DNA from: an uncultured Peptococcaceae bacterium
GTDB taxonomy: Bacteria; Bacillota; Dehalobacteriia; UBA4068; UBA4997
Length of the DNA: 18,884 nucleotides
Assembly: GCA_947625705.1 (NCBI GenBank)
Contig: CANQPG010000026.1
Location: 1-18,884 of the forward strand
Reading direction: 5' to 3'
The notes beneath the pieces are model-generated. The model made no database searches. It was not told where the DNA came from and worked only from the letters and a program-made list of their open reading frames with translations. This document shows, piece after piece, positions 498 through 18,390 of the stretch. Made by a program: the position numbers and the translations under genes. Every line of letters starts with the position of its first letter. The stretch's first letter is position 1.

Positions 498-2754
498 GCA
501 GGCGGCGGGCGGTATCGGCCTTTTTAAGCTGCTGACCAAGATCATTCGGCGCAACATCTGGCTGCCGCTGCTGGCGCTGATCGGCTTTCTGCTGAACCTG
601 CCGGTGGTGACGGCGCTGATCTATAACGCGATCGACAACGAGAACGTTTATTATACATATCAATCCAGTTATTTTGCCGAAGAAGTGATGATGGCGTTTC
701 AGATCTGTTCGTCGCTGATCATCATTGTGGGGGCGCTGCTGGCGGCGGTCACGCTGTTCCGCTATCTGCACGTGCGGAGCCAGGTTGATTTTTACCACAG
801 CCTGCCCGTTCGGCGGGAGAAATTCTTTGCGGCCAACTGGCTGGCGGGCTTCCTGGTGTTCTTTGTGCCTTACGCGGCGGCGCACCTGCTGAACCTCATT
901 ATGCTGGCGCTGTTCGGTATGCTGCCATACCTGCCGATGGATATGTATTTCACCTACATTCTGTTCAATATGCTGGGCTATGCGCTGATGTTCTCGCTGA
1001 CGGTGCTGGCCATGCTGCTTTCCGGTAATATGCCCGGTGCCCTGAAGATATTGACGAGTATCTATGGCCTTTGCCCGGCGATTGCGGGTTTGCTCACGGC
1101 GCTGGCCGGTATCTTCTACACCAATTATGTGGCGTTTTCCGATACGCTGACCAACGGCCTGCTGCATGCCTCGGTGCTGGAGCGTTACTGCTGGGTCAGC
1201 TGGTTTTCGATGGAGGGCAACGCGGCGATCTGCGTGCAGGACTGGATAATCGGTATTCTGCTGCTGGTGGTGACGGTGGCGGTATCCGTCCTGCTGTATC
1301 AGAAGCGCAAGAGCGAGTGCGCGGGCAGCACGCTGGCGTTCCGCTGGCAGAAGCCGCTGTTCAAATACCCTTATGTGGTGCTGTTTGGCCTGCTGGGCGG
1401 CATACTGTTCTATGCCATGGGCAATATGGACTTCCTCTGGGCGGCGTTCGGCGCGATCATTGCCACGCTGTTTATGGCGCAGCTGCTGGAGATCTTCGTT
1501 AACAGCGACTTCCGCGCGATCCGCCGGGGCTGGCGGGCGGCGTTCTGCTCCGTGCTGGTGGTGGGCGCGATACTGGCGTACTTTGGCATGGACTTGGGCG
1601 GCTTTAACAAATGGCAGGCCGAGGCCGACGCGGTGGAGAGCGTGCAGGTATCCTCCAGCCTGCTCAATCTGGGCACGAGTGATTATTATAATGACCACCG
1701 TTACAACTGGTATGATAATGAAACCTACTGGCGCTGGTCGAGCAGCGATTATGCCGAAAAGCAGGGCATGATCACGTTCAATGACCCGGCCAACGTGGCC
1801 GCGCTGGTGAGCATTTTGAATTCGCCCGAGACGGAATATGAGTGCCAGTATAACGAGAATGATTATTACAATTATTACAGCGACAGGCAATGGGTGGAAG
1901 TTGTATATCACCTGAAAAACGGCCGCACCAAGGTTCGGAACCTTTCCTGCGGCGGCGTGGTGGCCAACGAGCAGGCGTATCTGACGCTGCTTGCCAGCGA
2001 CGAATGGCGCGGGCAGCTCTTCCTGAACAGCGGCGATTATGACGGCAGAAACGTGCTGCTGGAGGATCTTTACAGCTTTGTGAACGTCGAACATTCGTCT
2101 TATACCGCGCCGGAGCTTTCGGAGGAGCGAAGCAAAGCGCTTTATGAGACGTACAAGCGCGAGTATAACGCGCTTTCCGCCGAGCAGCTGCTGAAGAGCC
2201 TGCCGCTGGGGCGGGTGCAGGTCGGCTTCTACACCGAAAAGGTGGAGCAGGACCACTATACCGATTATAGAGATCTCGAGTATTGGACGCTGTATATCTA
2301 CCCCGGCATGACCGAGACGATCGGGAAATTGCAGTATATCTACGGCGAGGACGCGCTGGACGCGAGTTATCCCGCGGGCAAAATTGCCTCCGTGCGGGAA
2401 ATGCGCAAGGTGATGGACTGGCGGCAGGACGAGGGCGATCTGCCTTATTACCGCAGCGACGTTTATGAGACGGAGGAGGTGCGGACGCTTGATCCCGCCA
2501 CGGACGCGGCGGAGATAGCCAAAATTTACGCCGCCACCGCTTCGGAGGATCAGCTGAACTATGCCGGGTATTACGGTATGACGCCGTTTTTGGCCGAGAC
2601 CTATTACGAGTTTACTTATAAGACGGGCTCACTGGACGATTATGAGTATGCCGTGGAACACGGCTATGAGGCCGTCTACACCGAAGAAGCGCCGCAGCAG
2701 GTGAGCGAGGGCGTGGAGACCATCTGGACGGAAGACCGCTATCCGATAAAGTGA
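472..2754 (+). CDS. Multi-pass membrane protein, putative permease partner of the upstream ABC ATPase, with a large hydrophilic C-terminal domain
   Basis: 760-aa ORF. Its ATG overlaps the ATPase 3' end by 26 nt. The N-terminal half is a series of hydrophobic helices (IWLPLLALIGFLLNLPVV, LIIIVGALLAAVTLF, WLAGFLVFFVPYAAAHLL and others). The C-terminal ~380 aa is rich in Tyr/Asp/Glu/Asn. The permease role is inferred only from adjacency and topology. Confidence 0.7.
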   Translation: MTLKNSSSEQAAGGIGLFKLLTKIIRRNIWLPLLALIGFLLNLPVVTALIYNAIDNENVYYTYQSSYFAEEVMMAFQICSSLIIIVGALLAAVTLFRYLHVRSQVDFYHSLPVRREKFFAANWLAGFLVFFVPYAAAHLLNLIMLALFGMLPYLPMDMYFTYILFNMLGYALMFSLTVLAMLLSGNMPGALKILTSIYGLCPAIAGLLTALAGIFYTNYVAFSDTLTNGLLHASVLERYCWVSWFSMEGNAAICVQDWIIGILLLVVTVAVSVLLYQKRKSECAGSTLAFRWQKPLFKYPYVVLFGLLGGILFYAMGNMDFLWAAFGAIIATLFMAQLLEIFVNSDFRAIRRGWRAAFCSVLVVGAILAYFGMDLGGFNKWQAEADAVESVQVSSSLLNLGTSDYYNDHRYNWYDNETYWRWSSSDYAEKQGMITFNDPANVAALVSILNSPETEYECQYNENDYYNYYSDRQWVEVVYHLKNGRTKVRNLSCGGVVANEQAYLTLLASDEWRGQLFLNSGDYDGRNVLLEDLYSFVNVEHSSYTAPELSEERSKALYETYKREYNALSAEQLLKSLPLGRVQVGFYTEKVEQDHYTDYRDLEYWTLYIYPGMTETIGKLQYIYGEDALDASYPAGKIASVREMRKVMDWRQDEGDLPYYRSDVYETEEVRTLDPATDAAEIAKIYAATASEDQLNYAGYYGMTPFLAETYYEFTYKTGSLDDYEYAVEHGYEAVYTEEAPQQVSEGVETIWTEDRYPIK

Positions 2755-2780
2755 GAGCAGGGCGTGGATAATATACGAAA

Positions 2781-2808
2781 GGCGGGGTGTTATACCCCGC
2801 CTTTTTGT
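2781..2808. terminator. Bidirectional rho-independent terminator between convergent genes
   Basis: GGCGGGGT (2781-2788), loop GTTAT, ACCCCGCC (2794-2801), then TTTTTGT. It is preceded by AAA, so it can serve both strands. Confidence 0.8.
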
Positions 2809-2816
2809 ATGTATTA

Positions 2817-3521
2817 TTATTGTACTATTGGCGCTTCTATCGGGGCGGTCTCGTTCCAGCCCCAAAACTCGGTGGTGACGGTGAGGGTGCTTTGCTGCTC
2901 GCCGGCGTGGGCGGCGGCGGCAATTTCCGCCTGGCGTATCTGGCGGTCGTCGCGGGTGATCCAGAGCGTGCAGGTGAGCGAGTCGAAGTATTTTTCGTAA
3001 TAGCCGGCCTCAGTCTTGGGCGTGAAAGTGACCTTCCAGCATTTCTCCTCGTCGATGCTTTCCTCGTCCTGCTCCGCCGCGTCATTGATGGCGGCCAGCT
3101 TAAAGAACGCGCGCGGGTTGATCTCGTTCAGCAGCGAGTCGTTGGTCAGAAGCTCGCCGTCGGAAATTTCCAGCCATTGGTCGGTGATGGTATCCTGGCG
3201 GAACGTAGTCTGCCCGATCTGATACATATTGACCGCCGTCCCCAGCACCTCGCCCTGCACGTGGCAGTCCGCCCCGCATATCTCACCGGAAAGTTCGCCC
3301 AGCGGCGTGCTTTCGCCGTTCAGCGCAAGCCTGCTTTCCGTATGGAACGAGATACTTTCGGCGGCGAGCAGGTTATCCACGGCGACGGCGGCAAGCTCGG
3401 CGGGCGGCAGCTTCGGCGCGGTGAAGCTGGGGCGCAGCCACATCACCAGCAGCAGCACGATCAGCAGGATTCCCGCGGCGGGCAGCAGAATTTTTTTGGC
3501 GTTCAATTTGGCGGTTTGCAT
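2817..3521 (-). CDS. Hypothetical N-terminally membrane-anchored (or secreted) protein
   Basis: 234-aa ORF. Strong RBS on the minus strand (AAGGGGGA, about 7 nt before the ATG at 3521). N-terminus MQTAKLNAKKILLPAAGILLIVLLLVMWL is a signal-anchor. The rest is hydrophilic with no motif I recognise. Confidence 0.7.
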   Translation of the reverse strand: MQTAKLNAKKILLPAAGILLIVLLLVMWLRPSFTAPKLPPAELAAVAVDNLLAAESISFHTESRLALNGESTPLGELSGEICGADCHVQGEVLGTAVNMYQIGQTTFRQDTITDQWLEISDGELLTNDSLLNEINPRAFFKLAAINDAAEQDEESIDEEKCWKVTFTPKTEAGYYEKYFDSLTCTLWITRDDRQIRQAEIAAAAHAGEQQSTLTVTTEFWGWNETAPIEAPIVQ

Positions 3522-3705
3522 GCAAAATCCCCCTTATAGCAGGCAGTTTGGCGGCAATCTTTGCCGCAGTGCCTAAAATTATGCCGGAGTTTTTGAGAAA
3601 ATTCCTAAAAGGCGGAGAATTTTTGCAGGGTTTTGTTGTTTCTGCGAGAATAAATAACAACAAGAATAATTTTCCGTAATGGCAAACCGGCCGGGGGGTG
3701 GTTAG

Positions 3706-4275
3706 ATGTCTGATCTGCCGCAGATTTATCCTAAGGGCTGCCGGGTCAAGGAATTGATATCGGCGGAGCGTCTGGCGCTGATGGTGGCTGACGTGGCGGC
3801 CGAAATTGACGCCTATTACGCTTCGATCGGCGCACCGGAGATATTGCTGGTGGGGATATTAAAGGGCGCGGGCGTTTTCCACGCCGACCTTTTAAGAAAG
3901 CTGAAGACGCCGGTGCAGGTGGATTTCATGCAGGCTTCCAGCTATACCGGCACGGCCAGCAGCGGAGAATTAACGATACATAAAGACTTGGCGGCCGATA
4001 TTTCCGGGCGGCATGTGCTGCTGGTGGAGGATATTATCGACACGGGGCTGACGCTTTCCCTGCTGCTGGAGCGTTTGAAGCAGCGCAGCCCGGCCAGCCT
4101 TAAGCTCTGCGCCGCGTTTGATAAGCGGGAGGCCAGGCGCTATCCGCTGGAGGCTGATTTCGCGGGGCTTACCGTTCCGGATAAATTCCTTGTGGGCTAT
4201 GGCCTGGATTACCGGGAGTATTTCCGGGGGCTGCCGTATGTGGGCGAATTGAGTTTTGACGAAGCCGAGGCATAA
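3706..4275 (+). CDS. hpt: Hypoxanthine(-guanine) phosphoribosyltransferase
   Basis: 189 aa. PRPP-binding loop VLLVEDIIDTGLTL, and the C-terminal FLVGYGLDYREYFR string typical of 6-oxopurine PRTs. G-rich RBS (GGGGGGTGG) upstream of the ATG. Confidence 0.9.
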   Translation: MSDLPQIYPKGCRVKELISAERLALMVADVAAEIDAYYASIGAPEILLVGILKGAGVFHADLLRKLKTPVQVDFMQASSYTGTASSGELTIHKDLAADISGRHVLLVEDIIDTGLTLSLLLERLKQRSPASLKLCAAFDKREARRYPLEADFAGLTVPDKFLVGYGLDYREYFRGLPYVGELSFDEAEA

Positions 4276-6041: not shown

Positions 6042-6079
6042 ATAAAGAAAAACACCTTATTTAAGGTGTTTTTCTTTAT
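6042..6079. terminator. Hairpin terminator immediately after rdgB; also the likely left junction of the integrated element
   Basis: Perfect 18-nt inverted repeat ATAAAGAAAAACACCTTA (6042-6059) / TAAGGTGTTTTTCTTTAT (6062-6079). The right arm is T-rich. The recombinase stop codon (6078-6076, minus) lies inside the right arm. Confidence 0.75.
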
Positions 6080-7590
6080 GGCGCACCCAATGGCGCAAAA
6101 TCCGAACATATCATTGAGCCGCTTTCGGCGACCTTTTCGGCTTCGGGCAGACTGATTTTTTTACTGTGGCCGTTAAAGTTAAGCTGCAGCAGAAGCTTGC
6201 CGTCATCATACACATAGACTGCCTGCAAGAATGTTTCGACTATGTATATTCGCCATGACACGTCGCTGTAATCCGCGGTGCGGAAACGCTGCAGGAACCA
6301 GATCACAGTATCGCGGGATATGCTGACGTTTTCCAAGCGTTCTTTGGTTATACCTTTTTCCAGCGCCGCCCGCTCGGCTTCCAGCTCCATTATGTGGCTT
6401 TTCAGGCTATCGGTCACAAAGCCGCTGTCGATAAGCGCCATGGAGTTTTTGATAGCAGATTGGGTTTGCTTCAGACGTTTTTCCAGCGCGGTGGCGTGGC
6501 TGCTGGCGGACTGTTCTGCCTGCCATGCCATAAAGGTGTCGGCTATGCCGTTGATCAGGCCGTCGTCTTGAATAATATCGACCAATGCTTTAATAACTGC
6601 GTCCTCAATGAGCTGCTTGGATATGCTCTGACGGGCGCATTTCTTTTTGCGGCGGCCATTGCAGGTGTAATAATGGTAAATTGCGCCGCTTTTGCCGGTG
6701 CCGCTGTCGCCGGTCATCGCCTCGCCGCACTCGCCGCAGAATATTTTGGTCGTCAGCAGGAAACCGCCCTCGGTTTTCTTGGCCGCCGGCGCTTCGTGGT
6801 GTTTTTTCAGCATGGCTTGCACCTTGTTAAAAAGTTCTTTGGTCACGATTGGGGTTATGGCGTTTTCGTCGTAAATATCATCATAGCGGTAGACGCCGAT
6901 GTACTTCTCGTTTTGCAGAATACGCCGCAGGGAATTCTTGTTAAAGAGGTTTCCCCTGACGGTGCGATACCCCTCGTTGTTGAGATCGGTGTAAATATCA
7001 ACAGCGGGGCGGCCGGCGGCGTATTCCTCGAAAATGCGGCGCACGATCGGCGCGGTGGCCGGATCCGGCTCGTAACGCTTTTCAGCGTTTTGCCGCAGAC
7101 CGAAAACCATGCGCCCCAGCGTTTGCCGCTTTAAGGCGCTGTCATAATTGCCGCGCTTGACGTTTTGGGAGAGGTTGGCGGAGTAGTATTCGGCAAAGCC
7201 CTCCATGACGCTTTCCAATATAATACCCTCCGGGCCGTCCGGGATAAGCTCTTTGGCATAAAGCACCTGAACGCCGTTTTGCTTCAGCTTGTATTTGTAA
7301 ACGGCGCTGTCGTAGCGGGAGCGTGCGAAGCGGTCATTCTTCCAGCAGAGTACCACCGAGAATTGGCCTTTGGCGCTGTCGCGGATCATGCGCTGAAATT
7401 CCGGGCGTTTATCTGACGTGCCGGAAAGGGCGCGGTCACAGTATTCACCCACAACGGTAAGGCCGTGCTTTTTGGCAAATTCGTGGCAATCGCGGAGCTG
7501 CCCCTCTATGCTTTCTTCTCGCTGGCCGTTATAGGAATAGCGGGCATATATAACTGCGAAAAGGGTTGTATCAGAAATGATATTGTTCAT
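6076..7590 (-). CDS. Large serine recombinase (phage integrase type)
   Basis: 504 aa. N-terminal resolvase catalytic domain (AVIYARYSYNGQREESIEGQ with the nucleophile Ser context, then WKNDRFARS). Recombinase domain, Zn-ribbon CGECGE...YHYYTCNGRRKKKC, and a coiled-coil-like C-terminal region. Confidence 0.9.
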   Translation of the reverse strand: MNNIISDTTLFAVIYARYSYNGQREESIEGQLRDCHEFAKKHGLTVVGEYCDRALSGTSDKRPEFQRMIRDSAKGQFSVVLCWKNDRFARSRYDSAVYKYKLKQNGVQVLYAKELIPDGPEGIILESVMEGFAEYYSANLSQNVKRGNYDSALKRQTLGRMVFGLRQNAEKRYEPDPATAPIVRRIFEEYAAGRPAVDIYTDLNNEGYRTVRGNLFNKNSLRRILQNEKYIGVYRYDDIYDENAITPIVTKELFNKVQAMLKKHHEAPAAKKTEGGFLLTTKIFCGECGEAMTGDSGTGKSGAIYHYYTCNGRRKKKCARQSISKQLIEDAVIKALVDIIQDDGLINGIADTFMAWQAEQSASSHATALEKRLKQTQSAIKNSMALIDSGFVTDSLKSHIMELEAERAALEKGITKERLENVSISRDTVIWFLQRFRTADYSDVSWRIYIVETFLQAVYVYDDGKLLLQLNFNGHSKKISLPEAEKVAESGSMICSDFAPLGAP

Positions 7591-8395: not shown

Positions 8396-9058
8396 TTATT
8401 TGCCCACGCAGTCCTTGCAGGGCGCATAGCCCATGTTTTCGGCTGCGGCCTTGGTGATAGCCATGACTTGACGATCCCGTATGTGGTAGCAATCGGCCGT
8501 ATGATAACTCCGACCGCTGGCGGTTATGTAATACTCGCCGGCGATGGGCGCGGCGGTAACCTCCGGGGCGGCAAGCTGATCAGCGGAAGTGTCGTTGAGC
8601 TGCGCTGCCAACACCGGAAATACTGCCAACATTAGAACAAAAGCAAAAATCAGTATATTGCGCCGCAAATGGTTAGGCGGTTTCAAAAGCTTGTCGGCAA
8701 AGTAGGCGGCCTCGGCTTCTTGCTGAACGCAGGCCGCCGGGGAGATGACGTCGGTGGAGATATGCCCCAGCAGGATATGCCCAATTTCATGCGCCAAAAG
8801 GCGGGGCAGCATATCCGGCGGCAGATTTTCCCGCATGAAGATCAGTTTTGTTTGGCCGAGTTGCTGCGAAAAGGCGTCTTTGTGTCTGATATACTCCTTT
8901 AACTCAAGCTGGCGGATAATGGCGTCATTTTCATTGTTAAAAAGAAATATTTGCCAGCCTAAATTGTTGATGTAAGCGCTTAGATTGGTAAAATTTGGCT
9001 GGGAGCCTAACGCTCGGCGGACTTGCCGCGCCATTTTGCTGATTTGCCGTTTGTCCAT
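8396..9058 (-). CDS. ImmA/IrrE-family zinc metalloprotease with a transmembrane helix and a C-terminal Cys/His domain
   Basis: 220 aa. HEIGH in LLAHEIGHILLGH. TM helix ILIFAFVLMLAVFPVLAA preceded by LRRN. C-terminal YHTADCYHIRDRQVMAITKAAAENMGYAPCKDC resembles Ada-type / secreted Zn-binding motifs. Lies directly downstream of the XRE repressor, as in immR-immA pairs. Confidence 0.8.
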   Translation of the reverse strand: MDKRQISKMARQVRRALGSQPNFTNLSAYINNLGWQIFLFNNENDAIIRQLELKEYIRHKDAFSQQLGQTKLIFMRENLPPDMLPRLLAHEIGHILLGHISTDVISPAACVQQEAEAAYFADKLLKPPNHLRRNILIFAFVLMLAVFPVLAAQLNDTSADQLAAPEVTAAPIAGEYYITASGRSYHTADCYHIRDRQVMAITKAAAENMGYAPCKDCVGK

Positions 9059-9132: not shown

Positions 9133-9663
9133 TTATTTATCAGTGTTTTTATTTTGGGAGCGTAATTGCTCGTAGAGCTTTTCGGCAGCTGCGATTTGTT
9201 CTGGGGTGGGCGGCGGCATAATGCGGTTATCGCCGCCATAGGCCACAAGCCTGACGCCTTGCTTTTTTGCCTCTTGCTGCTTTTTCAGTGCAGCAAGAGC
9301 TATTTTTTCTTTTTCTGCTTCGGTAAGCGCCGGAGGCTGCTGGGGATTTTCCATAAGCAGCAAGCTATCCAACATATTATCTGCGGCCTTTTGCCCGGTG
9401 GGCGAAAGCTGCAGATATTTTTTTATGCCCTCCGGCAGGGAGGCGTCGGCAAAAATGGCGGTGGGCTGATCAGCACGCCCCAGCAGATAATCCACCGAGC
9501 AGCCGAGGTAGTCAGCTAATTTTATCAGCGTTTCACCATTGGGCAAAGCTCCATCTTTTTTCCATTTGGTTGCAACTGGGGAAGATAAACCGATTGCCTT
9601 AACTACGGGATTGGGTTTTGTATTTTTTTTTATACATAAATCGTAAAATCGCTCCCAGAACAT
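9133..9663 (-). CDS. XRE-family HTH repressor (CI/ImmR-like)
   Basis: 176 aa. N-terminal HTH (KAIGLSSPVATKWKKDGALPNGETLIKLADYLGCSVDYLLGR). No recognisable S24 Ser-Lys peptidase segment in the C-terminal half. Divergent from the early operon. Confidence 0.85.
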   Translation of the reverse strand: MFWERFYDLCIKKNTKPNPVVKAIGLSSPVATKWKKDGALPNGETLIKLADYLGCSVDYLLGRADQPTAIFADASLPEGIKKYLQLSPTGQKAADNMLDSLLLMENPQQPPALTEAEKEKIALAALKKQQEAKKQGVRLVAYGGDNRIMPPPTPEQIAAAEKLYEQLRSQNKNTDK

Positions 9664-14000: not shown

Positions 14001-14355
14001 AGCAATGGCGTGGCCTAGCCTTGAAGTGTTTTGCACGGCGAAGCAACGCAACGGCTAAGTGCAGTTTAGTTTTGCAATGGAAACGCCAAGCTTAGCGTAG
14101 CGTGGCAATGGAAGCGCTTAGTTTAGTGCAGCTTAGCGATGGTAAGGCGCCGAATGGTGACGTTTTGCGGGGGCAAGGCGCTGTGTGGTATTTAATGGCA
14201 AAGGAATAGCATTGCAAGGACTGGCGTAGCGTGGCAATGGAACAGCAAGGTGTTGCTGATCTAGGCATTGCATGGCAAAAGGTTTGGCCAGGCGAAGTTT
14301 TGCAGCGAATTGTACGGCCAAGGTAAGGCAAAGCAGCGAGGGGCAGCGATTTGAT
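14001..14355. repeat. Region with stops in the six-frame track, carrying degenerate direct and inverted repeats (GCAATGG core)
   Basis: Exact 19-nt direct repeat GCGTAGCGTGGCAATGGAA at 14095-14113 and 14224-14242. GCAATGG also at 14002 and 14074. The reverse form CATTGC at 14210 and 14266. TAAGTGCAGTTTAGTTTTGCAATGG (14056-14080) resembles TTAGTTTAGTGCAGCTTAGCGATGG (14118-14142). The plus-strand frame I translated by hand hits about nine stops, and the track shows no plus-strand ORF before 14272. Confidence 0.6.
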
Positions 14356-14898
14356 ATGCAGCACTTAGGAGATATAACCAAACTTAACGGCTGGGATATG
14401 CCGCCGGTGGACGTGATCATCGGTGGCAGCCCGTGCCAGGACCTATCGGTGGCAGGAAAGGGCGCAGGGCTGGACGGAGAGCGCAGTGGTTTATTTTTGG
14501 AGCAAATCAGAATTGTTAAGGAGATGAGGGCAGCAGATGAGCAAAGAGGCCGAACAGGTCAGTTTATACGACCTCGGTTTATGGTCTGGGAAAACGTCCC
14601 CGGAGCGTTCTCCAGCCACGGTGGACAAGACTTCCGGCGCGTCCTCGAAGAGGTCATTAGGATCGCGGAGCCGGAAGCCCCCGACGTTCCACTACCTGCA
14701 AAAGGAAAGTGGCCAATGGCTGACTGCTGGTATGGCGATGGCTGGTCCGTTGCCTACCGAGTACACGATGGACAGTTTTGGGGAGTGCCCCAGCGTCGCC
14801 GTCGTATCGCACTTGTCGCAGATTTTGGAGGACACGCCGCACCCGAAATACTGTTTAACCGCCGCCGGGTGTGCGGGGATATTAAAGCGATCTGCTGA
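14356..14898 (+). CDS. Cytosine-5 DNA methyltransferase fragment carrying motifs III, IV, VI and VIII only (catalytic half)
   Basis: MQHLGDITKL (motif III), GGSPCQDLS (motif IV, 14422-14448), FMVWENVPG (motif VI, 14590-14604), GVPQRRRRIALVADF (motif VIII, from 14791). No FxGxG motif I in or upstream of this frame. The start could also be ATG 14272, inside the repeat region. Confidence 0.7.
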   Translation: MQHLGDITKLNGWDMPPVDVIIGGSPCQDLSVAGKGAGLDGERSGLFLEQIRIVKEMRAADEQRGRTGQFIRPRFMVWENVPGAFSSHGGQDFRRVLEEVIRIAEPEAPDVPLPAKGKWPMADCWYGDGWSVAYRVHDGQFWGVPQRRRRIALVADFGGHAAPEILFNRRRVCGDIKAIC

Positions 14899-15886
14899 AC
14901 GCGGCAAGGAAATGCCCTTGGAACTGGAAGCAGTTTTAACATACCAGCGCGATCATTACGATGAGATACTCGCCCTTTTAACGTCAGCATTTGAAAACGC
15001 AGCAGGGTTTAATTTCAAGGCTGGTGCAAAAGCCGGAAGTATCGGGTATGCGCCCGATTGCGCGCCGACATTACAGGCAGAAAGACAAAGCGGCGTGTTG
15101 GTTTATGAAAATCACAGCCAAGACAGCAGATATAGAGGGCCGTTGAATGTAAGCCCTACAATGTCGCGGAAATGGGGAACTGGCGGAAATAATACTCCCA
15201 TTGTTGTCGCGACCGGGCAAGCAAACGCAGAGATAACGGAGGATATGTCTCCAACGCTGAATTGCAACCATGAGCAGCCTATTGTGATTTACGGTATATC
15301 CGCACATAACAGCAAAGCAATGCTATCGGATAATCCGCATAACGGCATTTACCGGGCTGATACCGCACGTACGCTGGACAATAACGGCGGCAATCCGACC
15401 TGCAATCAGGGCGGCATACTGATAATGCAGCCTTATACCACAAGCAAAGTGGCACATACACTGCGACCAAATTCTTGCTACCCTTATCGTCTGGACGCGG
15501 CTACCTATGTTATAGAGCCGTTCGGTTATACGCGCCGCTTTACACCGCTGGAATGTGAGCGCTTACAGGGCTTCCCGGACGGCTGGACGGATATAGGCGA
15601 GTGGACGGACAGCAAAGGGAAACTCCATAAGGCGAGCAGCGATAGTGCAAGGTATCGGGCGCTGGGCAATTCCATAGCCCTGCCGCCGTGGAAGTGGGTG
15701 CTGAAACGCATTTCCGCCTTGTATGAGCGCGACGTCACGATGGGCAGTTTGTTCGATGGTATCGGCGGTTTCCCCTTGATTTGGGAGCAGTTGAATGGCG
15801 CGGGAAGCTGCCTTTGGGCAAGCGAGATTGACGAATTTTGTATCGCCGTGACCAAGCGGCAGTTTGGACGGGAGGTGAGCGAATGA
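14537..15886 (+). CDS. Cytosine-5 DNA methyltransferase fragment carrying TRD, motifs IX and X, then motifs I and II (+1 frame relative to 14356-14898)
   Basis: 449 aa. GAGGG 6 nt before the ATG. LSQILEDTPHPKYCLTAAGCAGILKRSAERGKEMP and NPHNGIYRADTARTLDNNGGNPTCNQGG are TRD-type strings. RRFTPLECERLQGFPDGW is motif IX, ALGNSIALP is motif X. Then MGSLFDGIGGF (motif I, 15749-15772) and WASEID (motif II). The start is uncertain because the first 362 nt overlap the previous ORF. Confidence 0.7.
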   Translation: MSKEAEQVSLYDLGLWSGKTSPERSPATVDKTSGASSKRSLGSRSRKPPTFHYLQKESGQWLTAGMAMAGPLPTEYTMDSFGECPSVAVVSHLSQILEDTPHPKYCLTAAGCAGILKRSAERGKEMPLELEAVLTYQRDHYDEILALLTSAFENAAGFNFKAGAKAGSIGYAPDCAPTLQAERQSGVLVYENHSQDSRYRGPLNVSPTMSRKWGTGGNNTPIVVATGQANAEITEDMSPTLNCNHEQPIVIYGISAHNSKAMLSDNPHNGIYRADTARTLDNNGGNPTCNQGGILIMQPYTTSKVAHTLRPNSCYPYRLDAATYVIEPFGYTRRFTPLECERLQGFPDGWTDIGEWTDSKGKLHKASSDSARYRALGNSIALPPWKWVLKRISALYERDVTMGSLFDGIGGFPLIWEQLNGAGSCLWASEIDEFCIAVTKRQFGREVSE

Positions 15887-18390
15887 GTTTATCGTATAGA
15901 GAATTTCTCCAAACCAAGATGGAGATAGCGCCGGAAAGCGGTTTCGATATTCCGCCGGAAGAAATCAACCCGGCGTTGAAGCCGCATCAGCGGGTAGCCG
16001 TCCAGTGGGCTATAAAGGGCGGCTGCCGGGCGTTGTTTGAGGCTTTTGGTCTTGGCAAGACGGCGCAGCAGCTCGAATGGGCGCGGTTAATCACCAAGCA
16101 CCGGGGCGGCAAGGCGCTGATCGTACTGCCGCTGAATGTTAAACGGGAGTTTCAGAACGACGCTGTGAAGCTGCTGGGGCTTGACGAGCCGGTTTATGTG
16201 CGTAATATGGCCGAGGTCAAAGCGGCTGCCGGTAATATTCTGCTGACCAATTATGAGCGGGTGCGCGACGGAGATATTCAGCCGGAATACTTCACCGCTG
16301 CCAGCTTGGACGAGGCTTTGGTTTTGCGGGATTTCGGCAGCAAAACATACCAGACCTTTTTGCAGAAGTTCAGGCAGGTAAGGTATAAACTGCTGGCCAC
16401 GGCCACGCCGGCGCCAAATCGGTATAAAGAGCTGATCCATTACGCCGGATATTTGGGCGTTATGGATACCGGACAGGCGCTGACGCGCTTCTTCCAGCGG
16501 GACAGCACCAAGGCGAACAATTTGACGCTTTACCCGCACAAGCAGATGGAGTTCTGGCTGTGGGTGAGCAGCTGGGCTTTGTTTATAACGAAACCCTCGG
16601 ATCTGGGGTTTGATGATGAGGGCTATGCGCTGCCGCCGCTCAAGGTAAATTACCACCGTGTGGCCGTCGACCAAAGCACGGCCGGTTTTGAAAAGGACGG
16701 GCAGGCCAGACTGTTCCGTTCAGCTGCTTTATCCTTGCAGGACGAGGCTAAGGAAAAGCGCGACAGCATAGCGGCCAGAGTGGCAAAAATGGTTGAGATC
16801 GTCAATGCTGACCCCGGCGAGCATTTTATTCTGTGGCATGATTTGGAAGCCGAGCCCCACGCGATTAAAAATGCGCTGCCGGAAACCGTGGATATTTACG
16901 GCAGTATGGATATTGAAACCCGCGAAAAGCGGGTCAGTGATTTTGCCAACGGCAGGTGCCGGCTGTTCGCCACCAAGAAGTCTTTATCCGGCAGCGGCTG
17001 CAATTTACAGCGCCATTGTCACCGTGCGATATTCTTGGGCATAGATTACGAGTTTAACGATTTCATTCAGGCCATACACCGCATTTACCGCTTTTTGCAA
17101 AAAGACGAGGTCATTATCGACGTGATCTACACCGAGTCTGAGGATATGATCTTGGAGGCTCTGCAAAAGAAGTGGCGGCAGTTTGATGAAATGACCGAAC
17201 AGATGGTGGCTATAGTTAAAAAATACGGTCTGTCCGGCCAGCATATTCAAGAGAGTTTAGGCCGCAAAATGGGGGTGGAAAGAACGGAGGTTAAGGGAAC
17301 ATATTTTACCGCTATTCATAATGATTGCGTGCAGGAATGTGCCAATATGGCAGATAACAGCGTCGGTCTGATACATACCTCGATACCGTTTGGCAATCAT
17401 TACGAATACTCGGCCAATTATAACGATTTCGGTCATAACGAAAACACGGAGCGGTTTTTCGAGCAGATGGACTATCTGACGCCGGAGCTGCTGCGGATCT
17501 TGCAGCCGGGGCGTGTGTTCGCCTGCCACGTTAAAGACCGTGTGCTGTTCGGCAACGCTACCGGCACGGGTATGCCGACGATCGAGCCGTTCCACGCGCT
17601 GTGCATTGAGCATTACACGAAGCACGGCTTCATGTATTTTGGCATGATAACCGTCGTGACCGATGTCGTGCGTGAGAATAACCAGACATACCGGCTGGGG
17701 TGGTCTGAACAATGCAAGGACGGCAGCAAGATGGGGGTTGGCTGCCCGGAATATATCCTGCTGTTCCGCAAACTGCCCACCGATACCAGCCGAGCCTATG
17801 CCGACGATCCTGTTACCAAGAGCAAGCAGGACTATACGCGGGCACAATGGCAAATTGACGCGCACGGCTATTACCGTTCCTCCGGCGATCGCCTGATCAG
17901 CAAAAAGGAATTGGAGAGCGTGCCGGTGGACAGGCTGCAGGCCGTTTACCGGGAATACAGCCGCCATAACGTATACAGCTATGCCGAACACGTGGCGTTA
18001 GCCAAGAAGCTGGACGTTGAGGGGAAACTCCCCGCCAGTTTTATGGTGGTGGCTCCCGGCTCATGGAGTGATGAGGTTTGGGACGATATAAACCGTATGC
18101 GGACGCTTAACACCAACCAGAGCAAGCGACGCCAGCAGCTGCACGTCTGCCCGCTTCAGCTGGATATTGTCGAGCGGATAATTAACCGCTATTCCAACCA
18201 GGGTGACGTGGTATTCGACCCGTTTGCCGGGTTGTTCACCGTGCCGTATATGGCCGTAAAGATGGGGCGCATTGGCGTGGGCGTGGAGCTTAATCTGGAT
18301 TATTTCCGGGACGGCGTCGGTTATTTACAGGCTGCCGAGGCGAAGATCAGTGAGCCGACGCTGTTTGATTTTTTGGATATTGCCAATTAA
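15883..18390 (+). CDS. SNF2/SF2 helicase fused to a C-terminal amino (N6-A/N4-C) DNA methyltransferase domain
   Basis: ATG 15883 (RBS GGAGGTGA) overlaps the previous TGA as ATGA. Helicase motifs: LKPHQ, GLGKT (16048-16062), DEAL (16309-16320), ATATP, QAIHRIYR. MTase domain of beta-class order: HTSIPFG (17380-17391 = SIPF) upstream of HVCPLQLDIVERII...VVFDPFAGLFTV (18214-18240). Confidence 0.85.
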   Translation: MSLSYREFLQTKMEIAPESGFDIPPEEINPALKPHQRVAVQWAIKGGCRALFEAFGLGKTAQQLEWARLITKHRGGKALIVLPLNVKREFQNDAVKLLGLDEPVYVRNMAEVKAAAGNILLTNYERVRDGDIQPEYFTAASLDEALVLRDFGSKTYQTFLQKFRQVRYKLLATATPAPNRYKELIHYAGYLGVMDTGQALTRFFQRDSTKANNLTLYPHKQMEFWLWVSSWALFITKPSDLGFDDEGYALPPLKVNYHRVAVDQSTAGFEKDGQARLFRSAALSLQDEAKEKRDSIAARVAKMVEIVNADPGEHFILWHDLEAEPHAIKNALPETVDIYGSMDIETREKRVSDFANGRCRLFATKKSLSGSGCNLQRHCHRAIFLGIDYEFNDFIQAIHRIYRFLQKDEVIIDVIYTESEDMILEALQKKWRQFDEMTEQMVAIVKKYGLSGQHIQESLGRKMGVERTEVKGTYFTAIHNDCVQECANMADNSVGLIHTSIPFGNHYEYSANYNDFGHNENTERFFEQMDYLTPELLRILQPGRVFACHVKDRVLFGNATGTGMPTIEPFHALCIEHYTKHGFMYFGMITVVTDVVRENNQTYRLGWSEQCKDGSKMGVGCPEYILLFRKLPTDTSRAYADDPVTKSKQDYTRAQWQIDAHGYYRSSGDRLISKKELESVPVDRLQAVYREYSRHNVYSYAEHVALAKKLDVEGKLPASFMVVAPGSWSDEVWDDINRMRTLNTNQSKRRQQLHVCPLQLDIVERIINRYSNQGDVVFDPFAGLFTVPYMAVKMGRIGVGVELNLDYFRDGVGYLQAAEAKISEPTLFDFLDIAN

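Follow-up and report, generated by a model that had tools for sequence, protein, structure and literature searches.

Overlapping reading frames on a clostridial mobile element probably encode the two chains of a circularly permuted DNA cytosine-5 methyltransferase

Introduction

DNA cytosine-5 (C5) methyltransferases are not always encoded as one uninterrupted chain. M.EcoHK31I, like enzymes of the M.EaeI type, is a two-chain C5 methyltransferase in which one chain is read from a different frame of its partner's coding DNA (PMC2836561, PMC3404938). In M.AquI, the catalytic motifs reside in one chain and motifs IX-X in the other (PMC3404938). The present work concerns a pair of overlapping open reading frames (ORFs), termed alpha and beta, in a stretch of 18,884 nucleotides (nt) from an uncultured Peptococcaceae bacterium (contig CANQPG010000026.1, assembly GCA_947625705.1), referred to throughout as the window.

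Permutation of the motif order is a further source of diversity. The natural permutants M.BssHII, M.Alw26I, M2.Eco31I, M.Esp3I, and M2.BsaI, grouped as Type H, are cut in the variable region, and their motifs IX-X precede motifs I-VIII (PMC5944983). A 2018 survey of REBASE found that all natural permuted C5 methyltransferases are cut in this region; a cut between motifs II and III gave the most active topology in the experiments of that study, yet was absent from the database (PMC5944983). When M.MpeI was engineered to be permuted between motifs II and III, its activity equaled that of the wild type, the class-B permuted forms, cp62M.MpeI as well as cp58M.SssI, were active in Escherichia coli, and the pair Mpe[62-279] and Mpe[280-61], bisected after motif VIII, was active there too and still methylated and protected DNA (PMC5944983).

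Comparative sequence analysis indicates that alpha and beta likely constitute a single DNA cytosine-5 methyltransferase, encoded as two polypeptides from overlapping frames of the same strand. A preliminary description of the window had placed the beta start at ATG 14537 with GAGGG 6 nt upstream, measured the overlap at 362 nt, given protein-like readings of both frames, and listed three minus-strand ORFs across the region. These details were all confirmed, the minus-strand ORFs being 61, 71, and 78 amino acids long. The features of the locus are as follows.

14272-14898, plus strand: ORF A in its longest open form, 208 amino acids
14356-14898, plus strand: alpha ORF (frame A), catalytic half of the C5 DNA methyltransferase, likely start ATG 14356
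14431-14439, plus strand: motif IV of alpha, Pro-Cys-Gln with the catalytic cysteine
14518-14530, plus strand: Shine-Dalgarno region of beta, AAGGAG..GAGGG, built from the alpha codons K-E-M-R
14537-15886, plus strand: beta ORF (frame B, +1 relative to alpha), 449 amino acids
14537-14898, plus strand: dual-coding overlap of alpha and beta, 362 nt, holding motifs VI-VIII in frame A and residues 1-120 in frame B
14537-14959, plus strand: N-terminal domain of beta, about 141 amino acids
14587-14604, plus strand: motif VI of alpha, W-E-N-V-P-G, where frame B reads SGKTSPE
14791-14856, plus strand: motif VIII of alpha and its tail, QRRRRIALVADFGGHAAPEILF, where frame B reads SVAVVSHLSQILEDTPHPKYCL
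15533-15685, plus strand: motif IX (RRFTPLECERLQGFPDGW) and motif X (GNSIALP) of beta
15749-15838, plus strand: C-terminal motifs of beta, namely motif I (LFDGIGGF, binds S-adenosylmethionine) and motif II (ASEIDEF)

Motif content and circular permutation

All motifs of a C5 methyltransferase are intact in the locus, divided between the two ORFs. Alpha matches Pfam PF00145 (E=6e-22, profile positions 42-130) and TIGR00675 (E=1e-22), and carries motif IV as GGSPCQDLS, motif VI as WENVPG, and motif VIII as QRRRRI; the motif III region also lies in this chain. Beta matches PF00145 at E=7e-12 over profile positions 269-322 and a second stretch. It comprises about 140 residues without a family match, followed by a variable recognition region, motifs IX, X, I, and II, and the stop codon. 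Motifs IX-X follow the recognition region, an arrangement expected of C5 methyltransferases (PF00145). Motif I occupies residues 405-412 and motif II residues 428-434, and both are invariant in the alignments.

Instead of a canonical single chain ordered from I to X, the locus holds the order III-VIII on one ORF and recognition region-IX-X-I-II on the other. Since motifs I and II come after motif X, the enzyme is circularly permuted, with its new ends between motifs II and III. This is the arrangement of the class (Type) B permutants: beta runs through GNSIALPPWKWVLKRISALYERDVTMGSLFDGIGGF and ASEIDEF to its stop, and alpha and its fused relatives begin with M-x-HLGDIT. Non-permuted relatives carry the block of motifs I-II upstream of alpha and in its frame. 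The permutation is an addition to the preliminary description, as is the likely start of alpha. Homologues, including the closest relative, begin at M-x-H-L-G-D-I-T, which corresponds to ATG 14356 (MQHLGDITKL), and several are open only from this point; hence, alpha most likely starts there rather than at the beginning of its longest open form.

Conservation of both frames in the overlap

The family is large, with at least 565 confirmed stretches in species-representative genomes and at least 594 in viral contigs. Eighty genome loci were fetched, mostly from Oscillospiraceae and other Clostridia and including several cultured isolates and one complete genome, and three segments were mapped onto each: ORF A, ORF B residues 1-135, and the ORF B C-terminus. 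Sixty genome loci were placed in a codon alignment based on frame A, and 56 of these carry the overlap. The locus counts and shuffle statistics given below carry no correction for shared ancestry.

Frames A and B are both free of stops in 56/56 overlap-bearing loci; the remaining four frames are stop-free in 1, 5, 14, and 0 of them. Upstream of the ORF B start, in the same gene, the +1 frame contains 7.17 stops per 100 codons, against 0 in the overlap of the 56 loci, and the only aligned loci with +1-frame stops in this segment belong to a clade that encodes the N-terminal domain elsewhere. An independent replicate with 55 viral loci from IMG/VR gave 7.37 stops per 100 codons upstream and 2 in 5,957 overlap codons, with both frames stop-free in 53/55.

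Synonymous codons were also shuffled within each sequence, which leaves frame A and its codon usage unchanged. Shuffled sequences acquired a mean of 2.6 +1-frame stops each and were stop-free in 7.1% of cases. The pairwise identity of frame B in the overlap is 0.426, compared with 0.251+-0.002 after shuffling; the upstream control yields 0.301 for its +1 frame and 0.274 once shuffled. Where frame-A columns hold the same residue, codon identity is 0.556 in the overlap and 0.360 upstream, which indicates that synonymous change in frame A is suppressed within the overlap. The mean frame-A identity between loci is only 58% here, so synonymous sites are far from identical by descent. Nucleotide differences from the closest relative, L083, amount to 7.7% within the overlap, compared with 16.6% and 17.6% for the two single-coding flanks.

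The excess conservation of frame B begins at its ATG and peaks at +0.3 to +0.43 around LSQILE, KYxL, and ACxG; over the motif VIII stretch (14791-14856), it amounts to +0.20 to +0.41. Open frames, lowered synonymous variation, second-frame conservation, and initiation signals are all present, as in a conserved same-strand overlapping pair. The overlap is far beyond chance. The suspicion voiced in the preliminary description that frame B is not noise proved well founded: thousands of relatives align from residue 1, the frame is open, its ATG and Shine-Dalgarno sequence are conserved, and synonymous change is suppressed.

Translation start of beta

The start of beta is preceded by GAGGG at 14526-14530, 6 nt 5' of ATG 14537, and by AAGGAG at 14518-14523. 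Most relatives show the AAGGAGATGAG context, which corresponds to the frame-A codons K-E-M-R, 8-14 nt 5' of the frame-B ATG. The first in-frame ATG of frame B falls within -6 to +9 nt of the window position in most loci, and the +1 frame opens merely 3-15 nt before it. The fixed ATG, the AAGGAG element, and the N-terminal placement of the domain fit independent initiation and do not fit entry into frame B through a late frameshift.

Such a shift was among the explanations offered in the preliminary description. Programmed +1 frameshifting near the end of ORF A would join alpha to the downstream part of beta and produce a single-chain enzyme, possibly beside the separate chains. The two frames do differ by +1, and fused relatives demonstrate that a covalent link between alpha and the recognition region works in this family. 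Nevertheless, no recognizable slippery sequence or stop-codon shift site occurs in 14857-14898, and the alpha stop is not fixed in split relatives, lying at +9 nt in L083 and at about +90 nt in L082. The combination known from prfB, a conserved shift-prone codon with a zero-frame stop at a fixed position, was not found either. A late shift would also leave unexplained both the open, conserved frame B with its ATG and Shine-Dalgarno sequence 360 nt upstream and the short frame-B ORF of fused relatives. Positive evidence for programmed frameshifting was not found, and the mechanism is considered very unlikely.

Relatives and architectures

Relatives fall into three types, namely ORF-B-like proteins, single chains, and chimeras that start as frame B and continue as frame A. 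In the single chains, MIHLGDIT...PCQ...ENV...QRRRRIALVADFGG..EILF is followed by the recognition region, motifs IX-X, and motifs I-II, all in frame A. At the level of loci, four architectures are found: permuted fused, permuted split (the window type), canonical-order split, and canonical-order fused. Irrespective of architecture, nearly every locus keeps the +1 frame over motifs VI-VIII open for 130-150 codons with an ORF-B-like product. In relatives with the recognition region fused to frame A, the overlapped domain is retained as a free-standing ORF of 130-150 amino acids. A neighbor-joining tree built on frame A intermingles fused with split forms, and every clade contains the overlap.

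The split of the window recurs in relatives. In L083, which derives from a different sequencing run, alpha spans 283-834 and beta 464-1786, with ORF B 79% identical overall and 87% identical over the N-terminal domain. The corresponding positions in L082 are 2320-2961 and 2501-3706, and its ORF B is 47% identical to that of the window. Split relatives also share a helix just past the alpha stop (YQRDHYDEIL / YQADHCPEII), which is specific to frame B and modeled by AlphaFold with a predicted local distance difference test score (pLDDT) of 84-95. The split is old and reproducible.

These relatives bear on the simplest alternative, also raised in the preliminary description, that a mutational or assembly frameshift interrupted a once-continuous permuted gene; upstream frame B would then be untranslated and its conservation a by-product of frame A. 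Frame A is indeed the more conserved frame overall, fused single-ORF relatives exist (P0049; L003 of Acutalibacter sp. 1XD8-33; a fused gene is also present at L078 of the cultured strain Anaerotruncus colihominis DSM 17241), and indel-like frame-swapped hybrids occur (L001, L014, L022, L024, L035, and Faecalibacterium phage FP_Toutatis). An uninterrupted homologue without conservation of upstream frame B had been named in the preliminary description as grounds for abandoning an overlapping pair. Yet in fused relatives, too, frame B stays open and is conserved, beginning at a fixed ATG: the short ORF is stop-free in 22/22 fused loci, mostly for 126-171 codons from its ATG, and its identity among them is 0.419 against 0.255 after shuffling. 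Moreover, shuffles that spare frame A abolish frame B's openness as well as its similarity, and an independent assembly shows the identical split, as do relatives with only 43-47% ORF B identity, L082 among them, together with the helix beyond the stop. One clade encodes the frame-B domain with little or no overlap. A simple frameshift is thus regarded as extremely improbable.

In that de-overlapped clade (L061, L063, L075, and L076), beta follows alpha with an overlap of 0-55 nt from stop to stop. Its domain aligns over the full length with the overlapped domains of sister clades and has the consensus IPYxxLDL..G..DLFG...WE..SP..LNTG..P....LSxILE..KYYLS..AC.GILRRA.ERGK.LP; solely WxGKxSPE, the stretch that mirrors ENVPG elsewhere, has been lost. 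The four loci are nested among canonical-order split forms. On the simplest interpretation, this family had the overlap ancestrally, and duplication of the shared segment resolved it a single time; this view is held with moderate confidence. A ghost of motif VIII was sought in the -1 frame of this clade and gave one weak match, in L061 (E=0.025), most of which is accounted for by KYxLS being read there as EIxF.

The frame-swapped hybrids named above, together with protein P0025, are interpreted as products of an indel within the dual-coding segment, so that the opening half of either frame runs on into the closing half of its counterpart. In FP_Toutatis, the hybrid corresponds to gp14/gp15 (L081:2105-3516), and gp14 consists of motifs III-VI followed by ..LSQILE..KYFLS..RGKALP. 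Such chimeras stay long ORFs because both frames are open.

Further interruptions were observed in several relatives. Six permuted loci (L016, L017, L030, L034, L040, and L043) have an extra stop or frame change inside the recognition region, which may represent additional splits or decay. Among 80 viral relatives identified through protein similarity, 9 have GGT GGT TCA CCT TGT TAG N as motif IV, that is, G-G-S-P-C-stop (L095, L100, L108, L119, L129, L131, L133, L149, and L160; the observation also covers L164-L283). After the TAG, the gene continues in the +1 frame (QDLSIAGKRAG.., motifs VI-VIII; median of 199 codons open), as if 4 nt (TAGN) had been inserted between the codons for Cys and Gln. 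Though its flanks differ, the 18-mer GGTGGTTCACCTTGTTAG, which ends with this TAG, is invariant; at least 120 IMG/VR contigs, drawn from many samples, contain it, in 64 distinct contexts. The site may bring about recoding (a stop combined with a +1 shift), mark a further split, or reflect conserved inactivation. Motif IV of the window (14422-14448) is intact and lacks the TAG. Three other loci (L059:441-470, L062:2299-2330, and L080:4214-4245), one from a Pseudoflavonifractor capillosus isolate, share a 1-nt deletion right after PCQD (CAGGAC|TCAG), which puts the remainder of the catalytic half into the -1 frame; either a pseudogene has been inherited here, or the deletion marks another point of recoding or splitting.

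The N-terminal domain of beta

Protein searches with ORF B returned thousands of relatives, many of which cover 98-100% of its length, including residues 1-135. The preliminary description had proposed separate searches with the frame-B N-terminal residues and an analysis of synonymous variation. A search of 1.84 billion cluster representatives with the domain gave 1,693 matches at E<=1e-3, in proteins of 132-730 amino acids, where the domain nearly always runs from residues 1-10 onward, and synonymous change is suppressed across the overlap. A string given in the same description, LSxILE..KY(Y/C)L..C.GIL.R...RGK..P, turned out to be the family consensus. The idea that LSxILE-KYYLS is how the variable region of canonical C5 methyltransferases commonly begins received no support from a profile search of the PDB, and was not used.

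Neither the single sequence nor a 55-member profile of the domain matched a family in Pfam, NCBIfam, PHROGs, or the PDB. A WalR/OmpR winged-helix identity was considered for window residues 46-117, where the matches were only borderline (PDB E=0.003, NCBIfam E=0.026). It was rejected, given that the 55-member profile had no PDB match at E<=10 and no member matched the corresponding Pfam family. AlphaFold modeling of beta alone predicts disorder for residues 1-91 (pLDDT below 45), three confident helices at about 95-155, and further confident parts within motifs IX-X-I. Foldseek comparison of this model with the PDB returned nothing below E=2.9.

The predicted disorder suggests a narrower alternative, in which both frames are translated and only the last third of the domain, from about LSQILE on, is functional, the first 90 residues being a tolerated disordered leader that exists solely because a usable start codon is located there. 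Consistent with it, the excess conservation of frame B is modest in mid-domain and only +0.03 at motif VI (ENV), a block dominated by frame A; the de-overlapped clade has lost WxGKxSPE; and B changes faster than A in the closest pair. The excess nevertheless reaches +0.2 at the extreme N-terminus and across residues 45-70, and the de-overlapped clade retains the middle block IPYxxLDL..G..DLFG...WE..SP..LNTG without anything overlapping it. This alternative is judged unlikely. From its conservation, the whole overlapped domain appears to be a functional module in its own right, and its role is most likely that of an assembly or accessory module of the enzyme.

Proposed mechanism

The preferred reading can be stated as follows. 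Both frames probably lie on one transcript. Alpha (14356-14898) would supply the catalytic motifs IV, VI, and VIII, and beta would start at its internal ATG from a ribosome-binding site formed by the K-E-M-R codons of alpha. Beta would contribute the N-terminal domain, the target-recognition region, motifs IX-X, and the S-adenosylmethionine-binding motifs I-II, and the two chains would have to assemble to restore the methyltransferase fold. Selection on both proteins would maintain the 362-nt overlap across a large family on mobile elements of gut Clostridia. An overprinted two-subunit arrangement had been the first explanation put forward in the preliminary description, and the frame-B relatives, the open frame, the conserved start, and the synonymous suppression argue for it. 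Motif content, both-frame conservation, start-site conservation, and recurrence of the arrangement are observed features of the family; on this basis, we infer translation of both frames, formation of a heterodimer, methylating activity, and a role of the N-terminal domain in this enzyme.

A more tentative proposal concerns origin. The N-terminal domain may have been born, or extended, by overprinting on the catalytic half and may now be a standing partner, a hidden protein of about 140 amino acids even in "single-chain" relatives. This is viewed as a possibility somewhat short of even.

Several observations weigh against the two-chain interpretation. The loci are kin by descent, and their counts overstate independence. 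In the closest pair, changes in the overlap are mostly synonymous in A and non-synonymous in B (13 vs 5), which implies that short-range constraint on B's N-terminal part is only weak. In B, the WxGKxSPE stretch resembles a shadow of the ENV motif in A. AlphaFold confidence is low, with a mean pLDDT of 50.8 for beta alone, and the model of the fused relative P0049, built on a shallow 28-sequence alignment, is unusable at 35.4; structure consequently lends assembly no support. Finally, the occurrence of frame-swapped hybrids, one in a cultured phage, indicates that some members may be decaying.

Genomic context

A large serine recombinase/integrase is encoded on the minus strand at 6076-7590 of the window, adjoined on the same strand by an ImmA-like metalloprotease (8396-9058) and an XRE-type repressor (9133-9663). 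The integrase and the ImmA/XRE pair upstream mark the window as belonging to a prophage or integrative element.

The gene that follows beta (15883-18390) encodes an SNF2-type helicase fused to an N6/N4 DNA methyltransferase (PF00176, PF00271, and PF01555), so that the element bears two different DNA methyltransferases side by side. Its ATG overlaps the beta TGA (ATGA) and is preceded by GGGAGGTGA, which suggests translational coupling with beta. The 355-nt gap 5' of alpha contains degenerate direct repeats at 14045-14273 with a GCAATGG core, in at least 5-7 copies spaced 31 nt from start to start. These repeats could be protein-binding sites (iterons or operators). Tandem Repeats Finder reported no array among them, and a promoter and terminator scan gave matches no commoner than in shuffled sequence.

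Implications

Long same-strand overlaps in bacteria and phages are rarely accepted, since the evidence is usually thin. The present case, in which about 115 codons appear dual-coding across more than 100 diverged bacterial and phage loci, represents a rare and well-supported long overlap. Its fused, split, frame-swapped, and overlap-resolved versions act as natural controls and make the family a model for the rise, persistence, and undoing of overlapping genes.

Should beta's overprinted domain be a true partner, more than 1,000 phage and mobile-element methyltransferase loci would hold an unannotated gene. The dual-coding segment would then be the place at which the recognition module is rejoined to one frame or the other by single-base indels, yielding the fused, split, and hybrid architectures found across the tree. 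Gene callers retain only beta and leave alpha uncalled in L082 (2196-2500) and L083 (196-463), and by implication in the window (14356-14536). With the catalytic-cysteine ORF dropped in this manner, such loci are likely mis-annotated or flagged as pseudogenes, which would bias surveys of phage methyltransferases. The family further shows that the II/III permutation topology exists, and is widespread, in nature. Naturally split and permuted pairs may be useful starting points for targeted-methylation tools based on fragment complementation.

Comparison with known systems

Long same-strand overprinted genes of viruses share with the locus an ancient, ordered frame and a second frame that is restricted to the family and largely predicted to be disordered, along with suppressed synonymous change in the shared region. 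The window differs in that it belongs to a bacterial mobile element and in that both products appear to belong to one enzyme. Unlike viral overprinted genes, its family also includes natural fused, split, frame-swapped, and de-overlapped versions.

The likeness to M.EcoHK31I lies in two polypeptides, one of which is encoded out of frame within the coding DNA of its partner. There, beta lies wholly inside alpha and carries motif IX only, whereas alpha holds motifs I-VIII, motif X, and the recognition domain. The overlap in the window is partial, covering 362 nt of the 1,350-nt beta, which runs 988 nt past alpha. The overlapped part of beta contains no methyltransferase motif, which sets the locus apart from the M.EcoHK31I type; beta instead carries the recognition region with motifs IX, X, I, and II of what is a permuted enzyme.

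M.AquI retains the canonical motif order, and PMC3404938 mentions neither a long dual-coding overlap nor an extra N-terminal domain. Systems of this type comprise two separately translated chains, cut between motif VIII and the recognition region and both required for activity. At the level of the genes, the ORF structure and conserved internal start of the window fit a cut at that point.

With Type H enzymes, the family shares the placement of motif X before motif I in the polypeptide. The cut, however, falls between motifs II and III, and the fused relatives start with MIHLGDIT.. and end after motif II, which places them outside Type H. The engineered class-B permutants have the topology of the fused relatives, and the bisected pair has that of the window alpha and beta; these constructs are artificial and have neither overlapping coding nor an added N-terminal domain. 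By analogy with engineered M.MpeI and natural M.AquI and M.EcoHK31I, a two-chain permuted enzyme is feasible.

The searchable literature yielded no earlier description of this overlap or of natural II/III permutants. Precedents exist separately for overprinted, split, and permuted C5 methyltransferases. On the basis of these comparisons, what appears to be new is the permutation point between motifs II and III, the partial overlap with a non-methyltransferase domain, the persistence of this overlap in fused relatives, and the depth of its conservation.

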